IMG/VR virus record: IMGVR_UViG_3300037502_002518 | Coordinates: 69,712-116,838 of that record | DNA: 47,127 bases | Source: a virus | Taxonomy: Duplodnaviria; Heunggongvirae; Uroviricota; Caudoviricetes | Reading direction: 5' to 3' (one strand) | Shown: piece by piece, positions 3,145 to 46,560 of the stretch | Layout: every line of letters begins with the position of its first letter | How positions within the stretch are numbered: the first letter of the stretch is position 1 | Notes under the pieces: generated by a model | Databases searched by the model: none | What the model was told of the DNA's origin: nothing | The model's input: the letters and a program-made list of their open reading frames with translations, nothing else | Translations under genes and position numbers: made by a program

Positions 3145-3759
3145 TCATTTTACCTTCCAATGACAAAAGCCTGCATAATTCTTTTTAAGTGGAGCTTTTA
3201 GTCTTTCTTCTCCTACTCCTAATCTCTTTATTACAAGTTCTCCATCCAAGTCAGTATTGGAAACTATCTTAATTTCAAGATAGGCAGGATTATTCTTTGG
3301 AATCATTAAAATATTTTGAAGAGAAAATTGAACTCCATTTTCAAAGCTAATTTTTGTCTTATATCCCAAATTATATTGGTTGATTCCACTTGAATATCCC
3401 TTTCTTGGATTGTGTAAACTTGCATCTGTATACGCATCTTTATAAGTAATCACATCTGTAAATGTTGATTTTGACCTCATTCCAGACAAATCATATGTTC
3501 TGTCTTTTGTTTCGTATGTTGCATAAACTTTTGAGCCATTTAGGTTAAACACACCTGTTGCTGTATCAAAGTAGAATAAGAAACCTTGACCAGACAAACC
3601 AAATGTAATCAAATTTGATTTATTTATTTTATAAAAATCTGTTTTGTCTCCATTATATTCAGAGAACTCTGTAATGTGAGTTCCATTTACATATTCTCCA
3701 AACCACATAAATGCTTGGTTTTTATTGAAACACTTGCCATTTAATTTATCTTTTATCAT
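3145..3759 (-). CDS. Conserved hypothetical protein of SPbeta-like phage tail region
   Basis: 204 aa, RBS AAGGAG. W..EY..GT...EF and QYNLGYK motifs recalled from related Bacillus phages. Confidence 0.55.
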   Translation of the reverse strand: MIKDKLNGKCFNKNQAFMWFGEYVNGTHITEFSEYNGDKTDFYKINKSNLITFGLSGQGFLFYFDTATGVFNLNGSKVYATYETKDRTYDLSGMRSKSTFTDVITYKDAYTDASLHNPRKGYSSGINQYNLGYKTKISFENGVQFSLQNILMIPKNNPAYLEIKIVSNTDLDGELVIKRLGVGEERLKAPLKKNYAGFCHWKVK

Positions 3760-4640: not shown

Positions 4641-5795
4641 TTAGTTGTCTATATTTACTATAATTTCTATAGTTACTCCTTCAATTGTTCCCGATAAAAC
4701 TTTTACATTTAATCTAAATACTTCATCTTTCACGACAGAACGAATCAACATTTTTTTATTTCCGTCATCTTTTACTTCTAGTGGTTGAAATTTTAAAATG
4801 TCTGTTCCATCAAAAACTGATGTCCAATCTGCCATATTTAAAGATTTCTCAACATCAATTTCTGTTGCAATGTCTTGACCTGCTTTAAAACAAATCCCTC
4901 TTACATCTACAATTTCTCCATCATATGGAAAATTTACCAGCACGTTATTTGCTCCAATGTTTAAATATGGAATGACAATGACAATGACTTTTTCTTTTGG
5001 AAGCTCTCCTAAATGCTCTAGCTTTTGAAAAGACTCTTTGGACATTAGTCCATCTTCCGTTTCTGAGGCATTTAATATAGACCCACCAAACAAATCAATA
5101 GGAATCCAATCGTTCCCATCATATCTGTACCTTATCCCAGAGTCGTAAACTTGAGTTGTCCACCCAATTGCTGGACTGGGGTAATTATACATAATGTCAT
5201 CATATGTTTGGACATAAGGTTTAAACACAAGCCTTGTTGTTTCATATGCATCCAAAGCTCTTTCTGTAGCATTGTCAGCTCTTTCTGTCGCAATGTTCGC
5301 ACTGTCTGTTGATACTTGGGATGCTTGTAATGCATCTTCTAACATCAACTTTAAAGATTCATAATCGTTTAGTTTTCCCTCAATATTTTTAAATTCATTT
5401 AGGGCTTTTTGAATAATTTGCTCTAAAGTCATTACAACATCATTGTTTTGGTCTTGATGAAAAATTCTAGAAGATGGGTACTGGATTAGACCCCTGCCTT
5501 TATAAGACAGGTTAACTGTGTCGCCTTCTTTATCTCTGCTAAATTGAATTATCCCTGTTGCATAGTCTACAGCAAAAGTTGTTGATGTTAACTCTCTTGC
5601 ATGATATTTTTCATAATTAACTTCTTGCATCCCTTGAATTATAACCCTATCGAACTTTGATGGAATTTCGCTCAAAACTACTTTCTGATTAATTACTTTT
5701 AAATGTTCAACTCTATCTGTATATGGGTCTTCCTCTGTTCCTGCTCTCCATATAATACGTATAGGGTCTAAGAATCCATAGTCGCTATATGCCAT
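4641..5795 (-). CDS. Baseplate/fibre adaptor protein (SPbeta YomF-like N-terminus, coiled coil, C-terminal beta domain)
   Basis: DP.....G...DPY, FAVDYATGIIQF and YKGRGL..YP.SRI motifs (recalled). Central coiled coil. Confidence 0.6.
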   Translation of the reverse strand: MAYSDYGFLDPIRIIWRAGTEEDPYTDRVEHLKVINQKVVLSEIPSKFDRVIIQGMQEVNYEKYHARELTSTTFAVDYATGIIQFSRDKEGDTVNLSYKGRGLIQYPSSRIFHQDQNNDVVMTLEQIIQKALNEFKNIEGKLNDYESLKLMLEDALQASQVSTDSANIATERADNATERALDAYETTRLVFKPYVQTYDDIMYNYPSPAIGWTTQVYDSGIRYRYDGNDWIPIDLFGGSILNASETEDGLMSKESFQKLEHLGELPKEKVIVIVIPYLNIGANNVLVNFPYDGEIVDVRGICFKAGQDIATEIDVEKSLNMADWTSVFDGTDILKFQPLEVKDDGNKKMLIRSVVKDEVFRLNVKVLSGTIEGVTIEIIVNIDN

Positions 5796-20238: not shown

Positions 20239-21240
20239 CTAAATTTCTAACTTCTTCTTGTCCTCTTGGATTTTATCATAGTTTTCTTGTAGGTAGTGCG
20301 CTCTTGTTACATCTGTACCAGAGTGATTTAACAAAGTTGAGACATCTTCTAATTTCATGCCTTTTTGATAAAGTAAGTTAGACCCACTATGCCTCAAGTC
20401 ATGAACATGCAAGTCCTCATCAACATAATCCCCAATGTCTTTTATCCATCTCGTTTGGATTGTGACTTTACTAATCTTTTCTCCCTTTTTGCTTAAGAAT
20501 AAATGGTCTGAATTGAACCCAATTTCTTCTCTTTCTTTTATCCAAGCCTTAATAGCCTTTAATGCTCTGTCTGACGGAAACAAGTTTACAACCTTTCCCT
20601 CTTTCTCCAAAACCTCTTTTATGATTCCATTATCAAAATCTATTTGACTAATTTTTATATTTGATAAAGCGTTTACACGAGCCATGGTTGAAAGTGCAAC
20701 CTCAAAGAATGCTGTTAACTGCAACTCTTTACCTTTTTTAAGCTTCCTTCTAATTGTTTCTACTTGTTCTTTTGTTAAATAAGTTTGTTTTACTTGAGGT
20801 TTTTCATTTGGTCTGATTCTAATTCTCTCAATGAAATCCATAGGGTTTACTTTAATTTTTCTTTTTTTTAAAAAATAACCAAATAAAGATGATAAGGTTG
20901 CCATTCTTCTTTGCATTCTTCTTTCATTATTGCCTAGCTTTTCAATACAAAAAGTGATATAGTCTTCTAAAATGTCTACCATGTCATCAATGCCAATATC
21001 ATCTTTCATAATTTCTAATAAGTCTTCTTCTTCAATAATTCCCTCATCATACCTGTCTTTTAAAAACACAAAGAACTGGTCTAAATCATTTTGATAGGAT
21101 TTTTTTGTTGACTCTGACAAGTTTAAACTTTTATAATTAAAGAACCTCTTGGCATATATTTTATTTTCTTCACAAACTTTATCCAATTTTGATTTTGTTG
21201 TATATTTTACATATTTCCTTTTTTCTTTCATTCTCGTCAC
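20239..21240 (-). CDS. Tyrosine recombinase within the tail operon (YomM-like)
   Basis: Full catalytic set: ARVNA (R), HDLRH (HxxR), LLNH...TRAHY (H, Y), plus a SAM-like N-domain. Confidence 0.9.
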   Translation of the reverse strand: MTRMKEKRKYVKYTTKSKLDKVCEENKIYAKRFFNYKSLNLSESTKKSYQNDLDQFFVFLKDRYDEGIIEEEDLLEIMKDDIGIDDMVDILEDYITFCIEKLGNNERRMQRRMATLSSLFGYFLKKRKIKVNPMDFIERIRIRPNEKPQVKQTYLTKEQVETIRRKLKKGKELQLTAFFEVALSTMARVNALSNIKISQIDFDNGIIKEVLEKEGKVVNLFPSDRALKAIKAWIKEREEIGFNSDHLFLSKKGEKISKVTIQTRWIKDIGDYVDEDLHVHDLRHSGSNLLYQKGMKLEDVSTLLNHSGTDVTRAHYLQENYDKIQEDKKKLEI

Positions 21241-31270: not shown

Positions 31271-32953
31271 CTACCATTTTTTCTTTCTCTTATTGAAGTT
31301 TACACTCCTACCAACAAAATACTTTGATGGGTCTCCCATATCTTCATCTTTGATTAGTTTGTTTTTCTTTTCTTCAAGATAAATCCAAAATAAACCATAT
31401 TCTAAAGCTGAGAACCTATCTTTTTGTATTCCATTTGATATTCTTTTTACATCCGTATTTATACCAGACTGCTTATATTCAAGGTTCATGACCTCTTCTT
31501 GTAAGAAGTCTGTCATTGTAAATGGTCTTAAATGTTCAGCTATGTTTTCATCTTTTCCTTTGTAATTCATTTTTGCATTTGATTCTGATTCTAAAAACTT
31601 AACTTGGTTGTTACCAACCCATCTAATAAATAAGTTGTGAATGTCTGAAGCCTTTTGCTCTTTTGTTTGAGACTTAACAGCATAAATCATAGGTACACTT
31701 TCTGATGTTTTATATCTTTTGTACCTGTCGTCATTTATAACTTCATATGGTGGATTTGTATCCAAGTCTGGAGCAACTAGATAATCAACTAAACCTTGCC
31801 CTAAACCATTAGCATCCAAAACTAAAACTCTTGCTCTAAAGTCATTTACTTTTTCTTTTAGAAACATCGCCTGTTCTCTGAAGTGAGTACCTTCAAAAGT
31901 GTATATATTGACAACATGCTTGGAGAATGTTCCATCTCCTCTTTTTCTTATCTTTATAACCACTAAAGCACTTTGAGCGTTTGCACTGCCCTCAGACCTT
32001 GCAACGTCATAACTTAAAATGTACTCGAAATCCTTATCCTTAACTGCCTTGGTTTCTGCTGTTTTTAAAATTCTAGATTTTCTAAAAGATTCTAAATCAA
32101 CTAAAGAGCTTTCACTAGAACCCGACCAAACACTTCCGTACTCTCTTAAGAAAGAAACTGGATTAAAGTTTGGGGAGTCTTTTAGTTCGTTAATGTAAGA
32201 TATATCTAATAAGTCTACTGATGTAGGAAGTTCATATGATGAACCCAAAACAAAAGCTGACTTTCCTTCTACCATATCTTGAAAATATTCTTGTAAAAGG
32301 TTGTAAGCAAAAGACTGCTTCGTACCGGCTGTTGTGACTATAGTCACCTTTTTCGATAATTCATATGGGTCTTGACCCCCACAACTTGCCATTCTATTAT
32401 TCGCCATAATAGGTAATAATACCTTTGTATAGTTCTCTTCATCAAATCTTTCGTGAATAATCTCCTCTACTGAAAGCCCATGTCTTCTTAAACCACGAGA
32501 AGATTCTCTATTGGCTACAACATCGAGTATTGCGCCATTCCAAAAAACAAGTTTTGTATAATCTTTGTCAAATTTAAAAGACTTTACTTCATTTTTTAAC
32601 AAAGGAATAAAATCCCATATTGCTTCAATATTTTGTTGAGCAATATCACTTGCCATTTGTTTTTGTGGAGCTGTAATCATTATCTTTATGTTTGGATATA
32701 ATATACACTCTATCATTTTTGCTAATACTTCCAAGAACGACTTAGAAGCACCACGAGTTAAGGTAAAATATGTTCTTCTGTATCTGAACATTATTCTCAA
32801 AATAATCCTCTGATAGAAGAATAACTTAAATTTTGATTTTTCTGGAAGTAAAAAGTCAACAAAAAGGTCTGGATAAGACCTAAACAGAGATAAATACTCT
32901 GTCCAATCATCCATCATGGCATCTAGCATCTTACTTCTTTTTGGCTTATTCAT
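31271..32953 (-). CDS. terL: Terminase large subunit
   Basis: Walker A-like TRGASKS, RGLRRH..VEE (Walker B), nuclease YDVAR...D.NGLG...KDRFSAL. Confidence 0.93.
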   Translation of the reverse strand: MNKPKRSKMLDAMMDDWTEYLSLFRSYPDLFVDFLLPEKSKFKLFFYQRIILRIMFRYRRTYFTLTRGASKSFLEVLAKMIECILYPNIKIMITAPQKQMASDIAQQNIEAIWDFIPLLKNEVKSFKFDKDYTKLVFWNGAILDVVANRESSRGLRRHGLSVEEIIHERFDEENYTKVLLPIMANNRMASCGGQDPYELSKKVTIVTTAGTKQSFAYNLLQEYFQDMVEGKSAFVLGSSYELPTSVDLLDISYINELKDSPNFNPVSFLREYGSVWSGSSESSLVDLESFRKSRILKTAETKAVKDKDFEYILSYDVARSEGSANAQSALVVIKIRKRGDGTFSKHVVNIYTFEGTHFREQAMFLKEKVNDFRARVLVLDANGLGQGLVDYLVAPDLDTNPPYEVINDDRYKRYKTSESVPMIYAVKSQTKEQKASDIHNLFIRWVGNNQVKFLESESNAKMNYKGKDENIAEHLRPFTMTDFLQEEVMNLEYKQSGINTDVKRISNGIQKDRFSALEYGLFWIYLEEKKNKLIKDEDMGDPSKYFVGRSVNFNKRKKKW

Positions 32954-41343: not shown

Positions 41344-41519
41344 GTGTTTTGTTTAAAATTTATGTATTTGATTAAATTATAGCATAAATACCATCAAAAC
41401 GTCAAAAAACCAGCAAAAAACTGAATAAAACACTTGTTTTTGATGAAAAATCATGCTATAATTTATATATAATCAATAAAATATATATAAAACTTACAAT
41501 AACAAAGGAGATGTTAAGC

Positions 41520-42530
41520 ATGAACTTAGCACAAGTAACGCAATTACAAGACGATAACATTTACGAATACTACGAGAATTACCTCAGTGGCTTCTCTGAG
41601 AATACAGCAAAGAACTATCGTGTAGACATTGAGCAGTTCTTCTCTCAAATGTTCAACAAAGAAGCAAAATATGTGTCTGTTAGTGACCTAGAGAGTCTTA
41701 AAAAGCTTGACATTGCCAGATATATTAACTTTATGGGCAGTAAATATGCTGTCACAAGTGTAAAAAGAAAATTAAACTCAATCAAGGGATTTGTTAATTA
41801 TATTGCTGGTGACTATGACAGTATAAACAAAAATATGTTTGAGAATGTTAAAACACCAAAGGCTACTGAGAAGCAAAATAGTTGGGACTCACTAGAGTGG
41901 GGAGAAGCTGTTGCTATTTGGACTTATGCTGAAGATAACTTTGGCAGTGAGATAGCAATGTTGTTCAAATTGGCTACTGTAACGTCTATTCGACTATCAG
42001 CTTTGTTAAACAGTACATGGTCTAAAAACTGGGGAATTAAGACTGAAAATGGCAATGAGATTCACTACATCGAGGTTTTTGACAAAGGGTCTGAAAACAA
42101 GAAGTCTGTATCAACAGAGTTTTACCAAGAGCTTAAATCTAAATTAAACAGACAAGATAAGCTTTTTCCAAATCTTTACCCAAACAAAGTTGGTAATATA
42201 CTCAAGGATTGTGTAGCTGGTGTTGGTATTGACCCTAAGCGTAATATCGTATTCCACAGCTTTAAAAAGGCTGGTGTCATGAGAGCTTTAGACCAGACAG
42301 GCAGTATGTACAAAGCTAAAGAGCAAGGGAATCACAAGAGTATTGTGACATCTGAGAAATATTACTTGAAGTACAAAGAGTGTCTAACAGACATGCCATC
42401 GTACAGTATGGACAAGGAATTGGACATGAAACAAAAATTTGAAGATTATAGCAAAGAGGAATTGCTTGATGCAATCGACAAGATGTCAGACTCAAGTAAG
42501 TTTGAGTTATTGCGGATTATACAGGGATAA
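41520..42530 (+). CDS. Tyrosine-recombinase-fold protein (SPbeta YopP-like); integrase or repressor
   Basis: SAM-like N-domain (SENTAKNYRVDIEQFF), SIRLSAL (R), FHSFKK (HxxK rather than HxxR), GNH...EKYY. RBS AAGGAG favours ATG 41520. Confidence 0.8.
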   Translation: MNLAQVTQLQDDNIYEYYENYLSGFSENTAKNYRVDIEQFFSQMFNKEAKYVSVSDLESLKKLDIARYINFMGSKYAVTSVKRKLNSIKGFVNYIAGDYDSINKNMFENVKTPKATEKQNSWDSLEWGEAVAIWTYAEDNFGSEIAMLFKLATVTSIRLSALLNSTWSKNWGIKTENGNEIHYIEVFDKGSENKKSVSTEFYQELKSKLNRQDKLFPNLYPNKVGNILKDCVAGVGIDPKRNIVFHSFKKAGVMRALDQTGSMYKAKEQGNHKSIVTSEKYYLKYKECLTDMPSYSMDKELDMKQKFEDYSKEELLDAIDKMSDSSKFELLRIIQG

Positions 42531-42537
42531 ATTGACT

Positions 42538-42565
42538 GGACAGCATGTAGTTGCTGTCCTTTTTT
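42538..42565 (+). terminator. Intrinsic terminator
   Basis: GGACAGCA-tgtagt-TGCTGTCC-TTTTTT. Confidence 0.85.
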
Positions 42566-42634
42566 GTTTGTTTAATTTTGACTGAAGCATTGGTGCGTAT
42601 GGGTTTGTAGCCATTTTATTTGGCTTGCTTTTTC

Positions 42635-42934
42635 AAAATGTCCCCCAAACCGCCCCCCTTATAATAATAGTTTACAGTAACTCTTATATACTAGCTTTTA
42701 GTTAATAATATATATTATACTGTAAACTAATAATATAAGGTGGCGCCTCTCGGGGACATTTTTAAAAACGTAACTTTTCGACCACCCCAGATTTTTGTGT
42801 TTTTTTAAAATGTCCCCAATAGCCCGTTCCTTATATTATTAGTTTACAGTAACTCTTATATACAAGTAATACTCTGAGTAATAATATACTACTGTAAACT
42901 TTTATTATAAGGGTGCGCGCCTCGGGAACATTTT
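42635..42934. repeat. Two tandem 128-bp imperfect palindromic elements (42635-42762, 42807-42934)
   Basis: Each reads AAAATGTCCC...CCTTATA.TA.TAGTTTACAGTA-38 bp-TACTGTAAACT...TATAAGG...GG(G/A)ACATTTT. Identical internal spacing, 172-bp period. Confidence 0.9.
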
Positions 42935-43032
42935 AGAAAAGCAGACTTAAATACATGGACGTTAAACCCTTGATAGCTCTGGTTTAAGACTATATCTGGT
43001 GACTGTCAAAACCAATGTTTTACAAAAAATGT

Positions 43033-43063
43033 AAAAGCGATGCCTATAAAATAAGCACCGCTT
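43033..43063 (-). terminator. Intrinsic terminator of the wHTH gene
   Basis: AAGCGGTGC-loop-GCATCGCTT followed by TTACATTTTT on the minus strand. Confidence 0.65.
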
Positions 43064-43068
43064 CTTGT

Positions 43069-43902
43069 TTATTTTTCTAAGTCATAAAATCTTTTTGCAG
43101 GTTCTTTTCTCAAAGTCTTAAATCTATTTGTTGACCCTTTTCTGTCTGGAGATTTAATATTTTTGTAAGTTATATAACCTTTGTCTCTGAGTGTTCTAAT
43201 TATGTCACCTACAGTTGATTTTGTCATACCAAGGTCATCGACAAAATTTTGCTTTGGAATGTCTATTCCGTCTGGAAAGTGTAGCTGTTTCATCTCGATG
43301 TAGCCTAATGTGTAAACATGTCTTGCATCTAAGTTCTTGTCTGACATAAGTTTTATAAACATGTCCATCTCGATTGAGTGAGTATGAGAGAAGTTATAAT
43401 ACGTTCCAGTGTAATCTGCTGGGTCATCGTCTTTGAATCGGACGAATGATTTAACAGGTTTACGAATCTTGAATTGTTTCTTTAAGTCGATTTGGTCACG
43501 AATAATCTTGTCTAAATCGTAATACATGACAAAACCTGTTGTCTCGTTTTCTGGTTGTGTATCGATAGGGTGGTCACGTTCAGAAGTAATGTAACCAAGT
43601 TCTTGTAAGATACCTCCATTCTTTGTGTATGGAGTGAATTTACGAATGGATGATAAGACTTGAGACATGATAACCTTTTGTTCGTAATCATATACAGTCC
43701 GTTTACCGTACATAGCATTTCTGTACAGAATGTTGATGATGTGGTAGTAGACGTAAGAGTAAGCTCTGTACTGGAATGACTCGATTTGTTTAAAGTCCTC
43801 AAAAATTTCATTTGGAATCTGAGGGTTGATGTATCTTGGTGTGACTAGCCATTCCTTGAATTCTTTACCTCTTAGTTTTAATTCGTTGTTGTTTGTAGCC
43901 AT
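43069..43902 (-). CDS. Conserved phage DNA-binding protein with C-terminal winged HTH (candidate replication initiator)
   Basis: IPNEIF.D, AYSY.Y, KNGG.L..LGY, TGT.Y....TH.I motifs. C-terminal LGMTKSTVGDIIRTLRDKGYI wHTH. Confidence 0.6.
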   Translation of the reverse strand: MATNNNELKLRGKEFKEWLVTPRYINPQIPNEIFEDFKQIESFQYRAYSYVYYHIINILYRNAMYGKRTVYDYEQKVIMSQVLSSIRKFTPYTKNGGILQELGYITSERDHPIDTQPENETTGFVMYYDLDKIIRDQIDLKKQFKIRKPVKSFVRFKDDDPADYTGTYYNFSHTHSIEMDMFIKLMSDKNLDARHVYTLGYIEMKQLHFPDGIDIPKQNFVDDLGMTKSTVGDIIRTLRDKGYITYKNIKSPDRKGSTNRFKTLRKEPAKRFYDLEK

Positions 43903-44000: not shown

Positions 44001-44069
44001 TTATCCACAGGTTATCCACAATGAGAAAACATTCTGGGAAATAATTTATCCACAGAAAAGTTATCCACA
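44001..44069 (+). promoter_or_regulatory. Cluster of four perfect DnaA boxes (TTATCCACA)
   Basis: Exact 9-mers at 44001, 44012, 44046 and 44061, all in the same orientation. Confidence 0.9.
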
Positions 44070-44104
44070 GGATAATGATATAGGCTAAATATGACGTTAA
44101 GTTA

Positions 44105-44133
44105 ATTATATCTTAAAATGTACCCTTTGTCAA
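44105..44133 (-). promoter_or_regulatory. Consensus sigmaA promoter for the wHTH gene
   Basis: TTGACA-17-TATAAT. Confidence 0.85.
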
Positions 44134-44199
44134 TAAGTTTTGGGAAATAATTTGATAAAATTTGTGATGTAGGTGAGGCGATTCATATAGACTTTTATT

Positions 44200-46560
44200 G
44201 GGGCATTCATATGTATAGGGTAAAATGTACTAATGGGGAAAGTATAGGGATTTATTGGTTAACATGTAGATGTGATTTTTTGATATTTTATGTGTAATTA
44301 TAATGGTACAAAAGACCTAAAAAAGCTGTTTTCTAAAAGTATGTAGGTTTTGTGTGGATGAAGTTGTGTTTTTGGGTGCTATTTTTTATCTTAAATTTAA
44401 TGGGTTAGGAATATACTTTATTTTTATAGAATTGGGACATTTTAGGAGTGAAAATTTTTTATTCTAAATTGAATGATTTTGAGTGTATTTGACTGATTTT
44501 TGAGTTTTTACCCGTTTTCCAAAAGTAAGCATAAGAGTGTTGGACGTATGGTTTGTATTTTTAGACTTATGATGAATAGGTCTATTTTTTTGTCATTTTT
44601 TAGATGTGTTATATGTAGGCTTTAATTGCTTAACTTTGGAAAACAGATATGACTACCGATTTTATGAGTCATTTTTAATGCTGGGAATAGATTTTAATTG
44701 GGTGTAGGGACTACCGATTTTGTGGTAAAAATTTATGGGAAATAATGTGTTTTTTAGGTGGGTATGAGTGATGTGTATAGGTGTTCATTTGGGAAATGAA
44801 GTTTTGTACTTGGGAAATAATGTATTGATGTGTAAATGGAGTTGGTTATGTATGGGGAAATGAAGTTATTGTGATGAAAAGTAGGTGAATGTTATGAGAG
44901 TTAAAAATGGAGTGTAAATGGGTGTTAAAAATGATGTTAGGACTTTTGTAATGGTGGTAGTGATTGGGGTAGGTATTTGTTGGTTTAAAAGGGTGTGCAT
45001 TTTAGGTGGATTGATGATGGGTGAATGAAGGGTGTGTTGTGAGAAGCGATTTTAAGGGAATGAGATAAGGTTTTGTTGGTGATTGGTTGAGTGGGTTGAC
45101 GTTGGTTTGGATGATGGTTGAGATGATGTTGTTGGATGAGGTTGGTTTTGATGTGTGTACATATAGAGAATATATGAGTGAACGTGTGAATGAATGTGCA
45201 GATGTTATGGTTTTGTAACATGCGGTTAGGTTGAGGCAATGACTGGATGAGTTGGGTGATGGGTTGAATTTTGTTTAGATTGAATGATTGAATGGTTGAA
45301 TGGTTGATGGGTTGGAAAATGAGTTGGGAAGTGGTATGTAGTTTTGGTGTAGGTTTTTAGTGCTTAAAATTGGTTTGAAAATTGGTTATGAGTTTTGGTG
45401 TATATGTCACTAGGGGTTTTGTGAAATGGCAGGAATTTCCAAAGTTGTAAAATATCCCCCACCTACGAACAACCATACGAACAGTTTATATATAATTGGC
45501 GTTATATATAACGAAGGGGAACACCAGTTTTTAAATGGAGTAAACTTCCATATTTACCATAGGTGAGGACATTTACCTATTTTTTGACAATTTTATAATC
45601 TGGGAAAATTTTTAAAATTATGGAAGATTTCTTCCAGTTCTAGACTGGGTGAAATATGGATATTTTTTGGGACTACTGGGACAAATTACCTATGGCACTT
45701 ACTTTTTGTAAGTTAGTTATAAAAAGATAACTAACGTTATTAAAATTAATTTATTAAGTTTTTAACCTTAATCTAACTTTTTATAACCTTAATTTTAACT
45801 TAATACTAACTTAATTTAATCCTACAATCTAACTTTATTTTACTAACAATCTAACTTAATCCTATCACTTTTATAACTTTAATTCTCTTCCACTTTTAAC
45901 TTAATAAAGTTATTTTATTAAGTAATTTTAACTTAATAAATTTATTTAATTAAGTTCTTAATTATAATCATTCTAATCTAATAATCATTATAATCTAACC
46001 TATCACCTTCCATATACTACCATTTTATCCTTATGCATATTTATTCATTACATTGTATATCTATACACTTACTTCCTTTCATTTCCTTTCATTAATCTTC
46101 CATATTCTACCACCATACCTTCCATATTTTAGGTGATTATTCACTATGTCAAGTAATTTTACTTGATATTTGTAAGGCAAAATAAAGCCCGTAGAGACGT
46201 TTTAAGCTTTTCAGGTATATTTACATTCAAGACCACCTTAAAACAAAAAGCATACTTTTTTAAAAAAGTCAATACATTTATTTTTCTTTTTACTATTGAC
46301 AAGTTTATTGTTCGATGCTTTCCGAACGTTTTCACCGACCACGTTGAAATTGTTCGTGTTTTCATTTTACTTCCACTATCTACTATTTATTCCACTATCT
46401 GCCATTTATTACATTTACTTACATTACTAACACTTCCTACCATTTACCATTTACTTCCATTTAATTACCATTTAATTTCCATAAAACTTTCTATTGACTT
46501 TCATCATCATCTATGTTATTTACACGTGTGCGCACACGTGCGCATGCACATGCACGTTTT
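44200..46560. other. Long non-coding, strand-asymmetric region (G/T-rich left arm, C/A/T-rich right arm); candidate genome terminus/packaging region
   Basis: C-free runs 44810-44942 and 45244-45362, G-free run 45759-45908, no credible ORFs. Confidence 0.6.

Follow-up and report, generated by a model that had tools for sequence, protein, structure and literature searches.

Two AT-centred palindromes following a Rep-like gene form a probable iteron-type replication origin in a 117-kb phage genome

Two large palindromes lie in tandem between two convergent genes near the end of a 116,838-bp IMG/VR phage genome, and we propose that together they constitute an iteron-type replication origin bound by a winged-helix, Rep-like initiator. 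From sequence comparison we put the probability of this assignment at roughly two in three. The stretch of DNA analyzed here, termed the window, is the final 47 kb (47,127 nucleotides) of that genome, and positions are those of the window unless stated otherwise. The ends of the genome are identical over 127 bp, and the assembly is therefore taken to be circular. Among its genes are a portal, a large terminase and a 2,381-aa tape-measure-sized ORF, and its relatives include Brevibacillus phage Sundance, the Tyroviruses and the Lactococcus 949 group. The palindromes occupy a gap (42531-43068) bordered by a 339-aa recombinase gene (rec) on the + strand and a 277-aa Rep-like gene (rep) on the - strand. 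The features referred to below are as follows.

31271-32953: terminase large subunit gene, 9.7 kb from the palindromes
41511-42530 (+): tyrosine-recombinase-fold gene, 339 aa, of the YopP / Tyrovirus gp19 type (phrog_1 integrase, 5e-25)
42538-42559 (+): intrinsic-terminator-like hairpin at the end of the recombinase transcript, whose 8-pair stem includes 5 GC pairs and precedes a T-run
42629-42679 (+): half-site 1L, with T-tract, box A AAAATGTCCCC at 42635-42645, spacer at 42646-42656 and box B CCTTATAATAATAGTTTACAGTA at 42657-42679
42680-42717 (no strand): centre 1, candidate DNA-unwinding element, 38 bp, 84% A+T, asymmetric
42718-42768 (-): half-site 1R, inverted, with box B at 42718-42740 and box A at 42752-42762
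42801-42851 (+): half-site 2L, with box A at 42807-42817 and box B at 42829-42851
42852-42889 (no strand): centre 2, 38 bp, 76% A+T, polarity as in centre 1
42890-42940 (-): half-site 2R, inverted, with box B at 42890-42912 (one mismatch) and box A at 42924-42934 (GGGAACATTTT on the + strand)
43065-43033 (-): terminator-like hairpin at the end of the Rep-like transcript
43069-43902 (-): Rep-like gene, 277 aa, proposed initiator binding the half-sites, with two winged-helix domains predicted from its model
44001-44069 (+): four exact DnaA boxes TTATCCACA in the leader of the Rep-like gene, the sole exact DnaA boxes in the 116.8-kb genome
44133-44105 (-): consensus sigma-70-type promoter TTGACA-17-TATAAT (12/12 matches), directed through the DnaA boxes towards the Rep-like gene

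Counting from one outer box to the other, the two imperfect palindromes extend over 42635-42762 and 42807-42934. Each is 128 bp long, they are 172 bp apart, and the whole element (42635-42934) spans 300 bp. A first-pass annotation, made from the letters of the window, had described four half-sites in two inverted pairs, forming 128-bp palindromes with a period of 172 bp. Recomputation of the repeats and inverted arms showed this description to be accurate: direct repeats of 69 nt (83%) and 57 nt (79%) are spaced exactly 172 bp from start to start, and the inverted repeats have 51-nt arms that are 80-84% complementary (42629-42679 with 42718-42768, and the partner pair 42801-42851 with 42890-42940). 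Each half-site consists, from the outside inwards, of a T-tract, box A (AAAATGTCCCC), a variable, G+C-rich spacer of 11-12 nt, and box B (CCTTATAWTAWTAGTTTACAGTA). The inner motif TTATAWTAWTAGTTTACAGTA is present in four copies when up to three mismatches are allowed (three exact, one with a single mismatch), all of them in the element, where 0.06 copies would be expected; none of 100 shuffles reached four, and no copy was found elsewhere in the 116.8-kb genome. The element begins 99 bp from the end of the recombinase gene and stops 129 bp short of the end of the Rep-like gene. The convergent terminators that had been noted on both sides are borne out by terminator-like sites at 42538-42559 (+) and 43065-43033 (-). 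Reading the element as a promoter was rejected: no sigma-70-like promoter was found inside it, and the TATAAT-like hexamers that sit in box B have, by inspection, no correctly spaced -35. The earlier observation that the symmetry extends outwards to GGGTTT and AAACCC is correct insofar as both sequences are present, but the symmetry itself is probably due to chance, as this outermost pair is 1 bp off register with the global axis and the right copy reads AGACCC in the 95%-related contig L011.

The centres were likewise found as first described, AT-rich and non-palindromic. Both are 38 bp long (42680-42717, 84% A+T; 42852-42889, 76% A+T), neither is self-complementary, and their polarity is the same in both copies of the palindrome. 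When duplex stability was computed in 40-bp windows over the 47 kb, centre 1 fell in the lowest 0.15% and centre 2 in the lowest 0.9%. An iteron origin is recognized by at least three specific repeats in excess of chance, by adjacent AT-rich DNA that is easily melted, and by tight, conserved linkage to the gene of the cognate initiator. The element presents four half-sites against 0.06 expected, two centres that are among the least stable DNA of the window, and, in 18 of 22 lineages, a place beside the Rep-like gene that does not depend on where the recombinase gene lies, as detailed below.

The half-sites are conserved in a manner expected of binding sites. Two close relatives, L011 (Rep 95% identical) and L012 (81%), carry two palindromes each, with periods of 172 and 163 bp. 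Three genomes whose Rep proteins are 81-100% identical supply 11 half-sites, and in these both boxes reach at least 90% conservation; the 11-12-nt spacer and the centres vary, and left and right spacers show no complementarity. Conserved boxes combined with drifting spacers and centres argue for protein-binding sites and not for an RNA or DNA hairpin. The same grammar can be recognized across the wider family: an A-tract with a GGT/TGT box is found in 24 of 72 half-sites (background 8%) and a TACATATAATA-like inner box in 35 of 72 (background 5%), with 18-20 bp from outer to inner box. The outer box varies by Rep lineage (AAAAGGTTAC, AAACCCC, AAAACCT and others), and the TACATATAATA-like inner box is more widely shared. 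Inside the inner boxes lies an AT-rich loop of 20-115 bp; the loops of the relatives are 64-100% A+T, and at least 75% in all but two. A third half-site in direct orientation is present in Geobacillus E3, L044, L068 and L069, giving two direct and one inverted copy, so that the set of half-sites in these relatives resembles an iteron array.

A nucleotide search of the phage collection with the 2.8-kb region and with the 391-bp element gave no match, and single-protein scans of IMG/VR yielded 1 and 0 loci, so that alignment-based scans were needed. HMMs were built from alignments of both proteins, and 30, then 51 further loci were scanned for genes and palindromes, bringing the comparison set to more than 80 related loci. 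Homologues of both flanking genes occur in Sundance, the Tyroviruses, BcoS-136, Alicyclobacillus phage KKP_3916 and Geobacillus E3. The window and Sundance share the gene order ExoV/RecD, rec, gap, rep, with 44% identity in rec and 33% in rep. Each of the first relatives inspected has a large AT-centred palindrome in the corresponding gap. Across the comparison set, AT-centred palindromes of 100-290 bp are located directly 3' of the rep homologue. Among the 51 IMG/VR loci obtained with the Rep-like alignment, 50 were usable, and in 35 of these the top palindrome starts between -20 and +120 bp from the rep stop. When the Rep proteins are clustered at 50% identity so that each lineage counts once, the top palindrome is at the rep stop in 18 of 22 independent lineages (binomial P about 1e-24, with a chance of p=0.03 per locus for this interval in a locus of roughly 6.6 kb). 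Three of the 22 lineages had no palindrome at the threshold used. The position of the element is kept across lineages whose sequences have diverged completely.

The palindrome follows rep through every gene arrangement observed. A convergent order, with the palindrome between rec and rep, is found in the window, Sundance (L004), BcoS-136 (L005), KKP_3916 (L006) and Tsamsa (L029). The order is rep, palindrome, rec, all in one direction, in L022 and L025, and rec, rep, palindrome in L028. The palindrome accompanies rep alone in L003, in Geobacillus E3 (L007) and in about 40 IMG/VR loci; most of the 51 loci from the Rep-like alignment have no recombinase within 3 kb. In one contig, rec is 4.4 kb from rep, with a CRISPR-like array and other genes between them; the palindrome there stays next to rep (L037:4241-4529), and all that follows rec is a terminator. 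Conversely, none of the five rec-only loci, with no rep within 3.5 kb (Geobacillus E3 L008, phage 949 L009, L016, L019 and L020), has a comparable palindrome. Since the palindrome tracks rep in every arrangement, the element belongs with the Rep-like gene and not with the recombinase. This comparison favours one of the two proposals of the first-pass annotation, an iteron-like origin served by the flanking wHTH protein, to which the conserved boxes and the centres resembling DNA-unwinding elements also point. Its other proposal, a recombination or partition site of the recombinase-fold protein, found no support as a primary function.

Several loci of the comparison deserve separate description. 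In L025, two palindromes lie 3' of rep (2818-2967 and 3145-3274) and differ in sequence and spacing from those of the window; to judge from their sequences, this looks like an independent duplication. L016 is a related phage contig of 83.8 kb. Just downstream of its recombinase gene (4881-5254), six copies of a direct repeat of about 32-38 nt recur every 66-69 bp and constitute a CRISPR-like array inserted between rec and rep. Many of the loci L038-L072 (for example L052 and L069) are viral contigs of 13-18 kb that carry an SU10-type major capsid protein, terminase and holin. In these small contigs, of which about 6.6 kb each was examined, the palindrome comes after the Rep-like gene and immediately precedes the terminase genes. 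The gene pair is also found on plasmids. In Paenibacillus larvae pPLP3 (L085, a circular plasmid record of 128 kb) the arrangement is ParM, rep, rec, with ParM upstream, and in a circular Bacillus subtilis plasmid record of 165.6 kb (L086) rep adjoins rec; a 162-kb B. amyloliquefaciens plasmid was also among the search matches. The first two of these plasmids are phage-plasmids, and neither has a replicon type listed in PLSDB. A locus of the P. larvae type in IMG/VR (L018/L061) bears the palindrome. The presence of the gene pair on plasmids speaks for the origin assignment.

The Rep-like protein is predicted to consist of two winged-helix domains. Its model (pLDDT 88.5, pTM 0.89) shows a helix-turn-helix and wing at about residues 43-126 and 179-263, and the N-terminal part bears a PNEIF motif. 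The C-terminal wHTH scores Z 7-9 against solved structures, and Foldseek and VIA-align searches of PDB with the model returned only single generic winged helices, matching this C-terminal unit. No full-length initiator match was recovered in these PDB fold searches, a result still compatible with kinship. The only near-full-length fold match in Swiss-Prot was RepFIB RepA, and it was weak (E 7e-3, TM 0.32); viral models labelled 'replication protein O', 'replisome organizer' and 'RepA-like' matched the Rep-like model at E about 1e-3 to 1e-2. In PHROGs the protein falls in phrog_19047, with an additional weak match to the replication initiator phrog_270. No curated initiator family in Pfam or NCBIfam matched the Rep-like family at threshold; among its members, HTH_36 matched 10 of 61 and RepL 2 of 61. 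A phmmer search against PDB sequences gave only a chance wHTH match for the Rep-like protein and no match for the recombinase. The relatives of the protein number 175 at E<=1e-3, and homologues have been labelled 'replication initiator' by depositors (Thrax, Kirov, Izhevsk) and 'transcriptional regulator' in PHROGs and RefSeq. Given the weak RepFIB match, the lack of a curated family and the mixed labels, we refer to the protein as a putative initiator.

The leader of the Rep-like gene has its own distinctive features. The four exact DnaA boxes are 1.1 kb from the palindromes, on the far side of rep, and adjoin a 2-kb region free of ORFs. They are kept in the leaders of L011 and L012. DnaA boxes as a trait of the whole family were rejected, as clusters occur only in the window and these two relatives.

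The recombinase appears to be a frequent companion of the replicon. Its Pfam matches, to Phage_int_SAM_1 and Phage_integrase, are weak, and its model (pLDDT 86.5) resembles XerA, XerH, lambda Int and Cre. No protelomerase was among the best 50 fold matches, although the Xer/Int/Cre-type fold and this result do not alone settle the question of a protelomerase. The catalytic set is R161, K192, H249, K252, H275 and Y285, with Lys where Arg-II is expected. Over 36 homologues R161, K192, H249, H275 and Y285 are invariant, and K252 (motif HSFKK) is kept in at least 90%. Sequence comparison suggests that the recombinase is probably a neighbour of the element and not its binding protein. It probably serves a separate stability function, the resolution of multimers (dimers), and often travels with the replicon; multimer resolution is the most economical role because the association with the replicon is frequent but dispensable. 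The papers on the Tyroviruses, Kirov and Izhevsk (PMC9703825, PMC10454425, PMC7685451) also propose multimer resolution for the recombinase, on general grounds. The string 'palindrom' is absent from these three papers, and they mention no origin. Two other sequences related to tyrosine recombinases are present in the genome. One, a second tyrosine recombinase at window 20239-21240 (Pfam Phage_integrase, 9e-26), is inside the tail/structural module beside the tape-measure gene, the placement reported for both Tyrovirus gp50 and the Lactococcus 949 group. The other is a weak match at genome 13737-13871.

Taken together, the anatomy of the element, its conservation pattern, its linkage to rep, the fold of the Rep-like protein and the low stability of the centres lead us to infer binding, melting and origin activity as follows. 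The 300-bp element would be an origin of vegetative or plasmid-type theta replication. Its four iteron-like half-sites of about 45 bp, arranged in the order right, left, right, left, would each combine a lineage-specific outer box with a more widely shared, A/T-rich inner box, and the Rep-like protein would bind all four. Rep bound on both flanks of each 38-bp AT-rich centre may help to melt it, and the host replisome would load at the melted centre. Two unwinding bubbles, one per centre, are plausible. The convergent terminators would exclude transcription from the element, and the consensus promoter followed by four host DnaA boxes might serve to control the supply of Rep or to recruit DnaA. 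The form with two palindromes would have arisen by tandem duplication of an ancestor with one.

Some observations do not fit easily with an origin at this site. Box A and box B are about 22 bp apart, start to start, which is long for one two-domain monomer. The protein family goes by 'transcriptional regulator' in PHROGs and RefSeq, and its fold resemblance to RepFIB RepA is weak (TM 0.32). The ORF-free 2 kb beside the DnaA boxes could itself hold an origin, and in the 13-18-kb relatives the palindrome is just upstream of the terminase genes.

Each of the other explanations considered is, at the level of sequence, contradicted by at least one comparative observation. The palindromes could be the target of the adjacent tyrosine recombinase, that is, a site of multimer resolution, inversion or integration at which several subunits occupy the four half-sites. 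The end of the recombinase gene is only 99 bp away, rec adjoins rep in 21 of 24 recombinase-bearing loci of the first scan and in all 10 recombinase-bearing rep loci of the second, and in loci of the Sundance type the large palindrome is nearer to rec (about 43 bp) than to rep. Plasmid resolution sites, moreover, are often located beside origins, as are rfsF/ResD of F and lox/Cre of P1. However, the palindrome is present in about 40 rep loci that have no recombinase in the vicinity, the five rec-only loci are without one, and the palindrome remains with rep where the two genes are 4.4 kb apart. Neither the arm and crossover layout of a dif/cer/loxP-type core site nor co-occurrence with the recombinase gene is observed: no core of 11-13-bp arms and a 6-8-bp spacer is present, the nearest inverted boxes being separated by 38 asymmetric bp, and the enzyme family has Lys at the Arg-II position. 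We consider a recombinase target unlikely. No better are the chances that the wHTH protein is a transcription or partition factor, with the palindromes as its operator, silencer or centromere-like site. That possibility accords with the label 'transcriptional regulator' in PHROGs and RefSeq, with the generic nature of the wHTH matches that score well, and with the ParA or ParM genes located just upstream of rep in Sundance and pPLP3. Yet the sites are downstream of the gene, in a promoter-free gap closed by terminators, and AT-rich centres of 40-115 bp are not a trait of operators. No ParA was detectable in this genome (a ParM search was silent here and in control genomes alike), and partition is hard to motivate for 13-18-kb relatives with the same module (about 6.6 kb examined in each).

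A DNA-packaging recognition site (pac or cos) is suggested by the small relatives with SU10-type capsids, where the order rep, palindrome, 132-aa ORF, terminase large subunit puts the palindrome in the usual place for such a site. In the present genome, by contrast, the terminase large subunit gene is 9.7 kb away, and in all large relatives the element follows rep and not terminase. The Sundance palindrome is at 7.2 kb of the record, and the ends of that phage are reported as 323-bp direct terminal repeats (PMC9703825). These features make a packaging site quite improbable. Least credible, with hardly any weight in our estimate, is the idea that no protein binds here and that the element is a structured hairpin of RNA or DNA, or else a miniature mobile element. 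The element does fold far better than shuffles as single-stranded DNA (z = -12), but the left and right spacers are not complementary, the centres are asymmetric, and the position of the element is conserved across lineages of fully diverged sequence. There is likewise no internal promoter. A structured RNA was rejected on the grounds that the region has no match to an Rfam covariance model and the arm spacers do not pair, and a MITE or other repeated mobile element because the element itself is its only match in the 116.8-kb genome. A protelomerase or hairpin-telomere site was dismissed as well, the centre not being self-complementary and related replicons being recorded as circular plasmids. 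A LexA/SOS box at TACTGT...ACAGTA was set aside in view of the 38-bp spacing and because such a motif is of the Gram-negative type.

The proposed iteron origin can be compared with several known systems. Iteron theta origins (F ori2/RepE, pPS10 RepA, R6K pi, RepFIB RepA, and the lambda origin with O protein) are similar in having repeated initiator sites beside an AT-rich unwinding element, close linkage to the gene of a winged-helix initiator, and host DnaA boxes in the replicon; partition and resolvase genes are often neighbours in both. The element differs in that its half-sites are about 45 bp long, bipartite, and placed as inverted pairs around an AT-rich centre, not as a direct array beside it. 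The protein belongs to no curated initiator family, the DnaA boxes are in the rep leader, 1.1 kb off, and, unlike the lambda origin, the element is 3' of the gene and not inside it. The origin of SaPI/PICI elements reportedly also lies immediately 3' of rep, with two sets of repeats around an AT-rich stretch of roughly 80 bp; the SaPI Rep is said to be a large, helicase-type initiator with short repeats, whereas the present protein has 277 aa and two winged helices, with no ATPase domain. The dif, cer, loxP and protelomerase tel sites share dyad symmetry and the proximity of a tyrosine-recombinase-fold gene, but the element has no 6-8-bp crossover spacer, and its 38-bp asymmetric centre is not palindromic through the axis. 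The closest counterparts are the Tyrovirus module from gp19 (XerD-like) to gp22 ('replication initiator'), in Thrax1-5, Tsamsa, Kirov and Izhevsk, and gp9-gp11 of Sundance. These consist of homologous genes in the same order (rec 26-44% and rep 23-33% identical to the window), each with a homologous-looking AT-centred palindrome 3' of rep. The Tyrovirus and Sundance phages have one palindrome, and the clade of the window has two in tandem.

What is new here, as far as sequence can indicate, is the proposed origin assignment and the recurrence of one unit, rep plus palindrome, in a broad range of phages and phage-plasmids of the Bacillota. If correct, the assignment would give a large group of these phages and phage-plasmids, in which no start of replication has been mapped so far, a concrete origin with its initiator. 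Among its members are the B. cereus/anthracis-group Tyroviruses, Brevibacillus phage Sundance, Geobacillus E3 and pPLP3 (128 kb), all of which carry the palindrome. The 160-kb Bacillus plasmids, known here for the gene pair only, would probably be included as well. The assignment would also provide a rule for annotation (an AT-centred palindrome just 3' of a gene with the PNEIF motif) and a minimal replicon usable as a vector backbone in these hosts, and would move the neighbouring 'XerD-like' recombinase to an accessory role. As the mechanism, iterons with an unwinding element, is a textbook one, the value would lie in annotation and tools and not in a new concept. More tentatively, with chances we would place slightly short of even, the PNEIF Rep-like protein and the AT-centred palindromic iterons 3' of its gene may represent an undescribed, widespread initiator-origin pair in phages and phage-plasmids of the Bacillota that range in size from 13 kb to 170 kb, with the origin duplicated in the present clade and coupled there to host DnaA through the four boxes in the rep leader. 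Its scope would take in the Tyroviruses, Sundance, Geobacillus E3 and P. larvae pPLP3, and it would mean that a plasmid-style, copy-controlled replicon resides inside a 117-kb phage.

The larger organization of the genome was also noted. Genes are transcribed from the + strand at about 1-62 kb and from the - strand at about 62-111 kb. These two coding arms meet near 62 kb and run apart from the rec/palindrome/rep region, a pattern that GC skew follows. The skew switches sign at genome 110-112 kb, and the palindromic element is at genome 112.3-112.65 kb, a placement in favour of the origin assignment; the skew is flat over window 41-44 kb and is confounded by coding-strand bias, so it does not pinpoint the exact site. 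Beyond the Rep-like gene, at window 44100-46150, is a stretch of about 2 kb with no ORFs of at least 85 aa. On the + strand its sequence is strongly G+T-rich at first (GC skew up to +0.57) and turns C/T-rich further on, and short tandem repeats are numerous. The stretch could harbour early promoters, the physical ends of the genome, or a portion of the origin. The motif TGGGAAATRAWKT has six + strand copies between 44035 and 44866, out of seven in the window as a whole, where 1.5 are expected.
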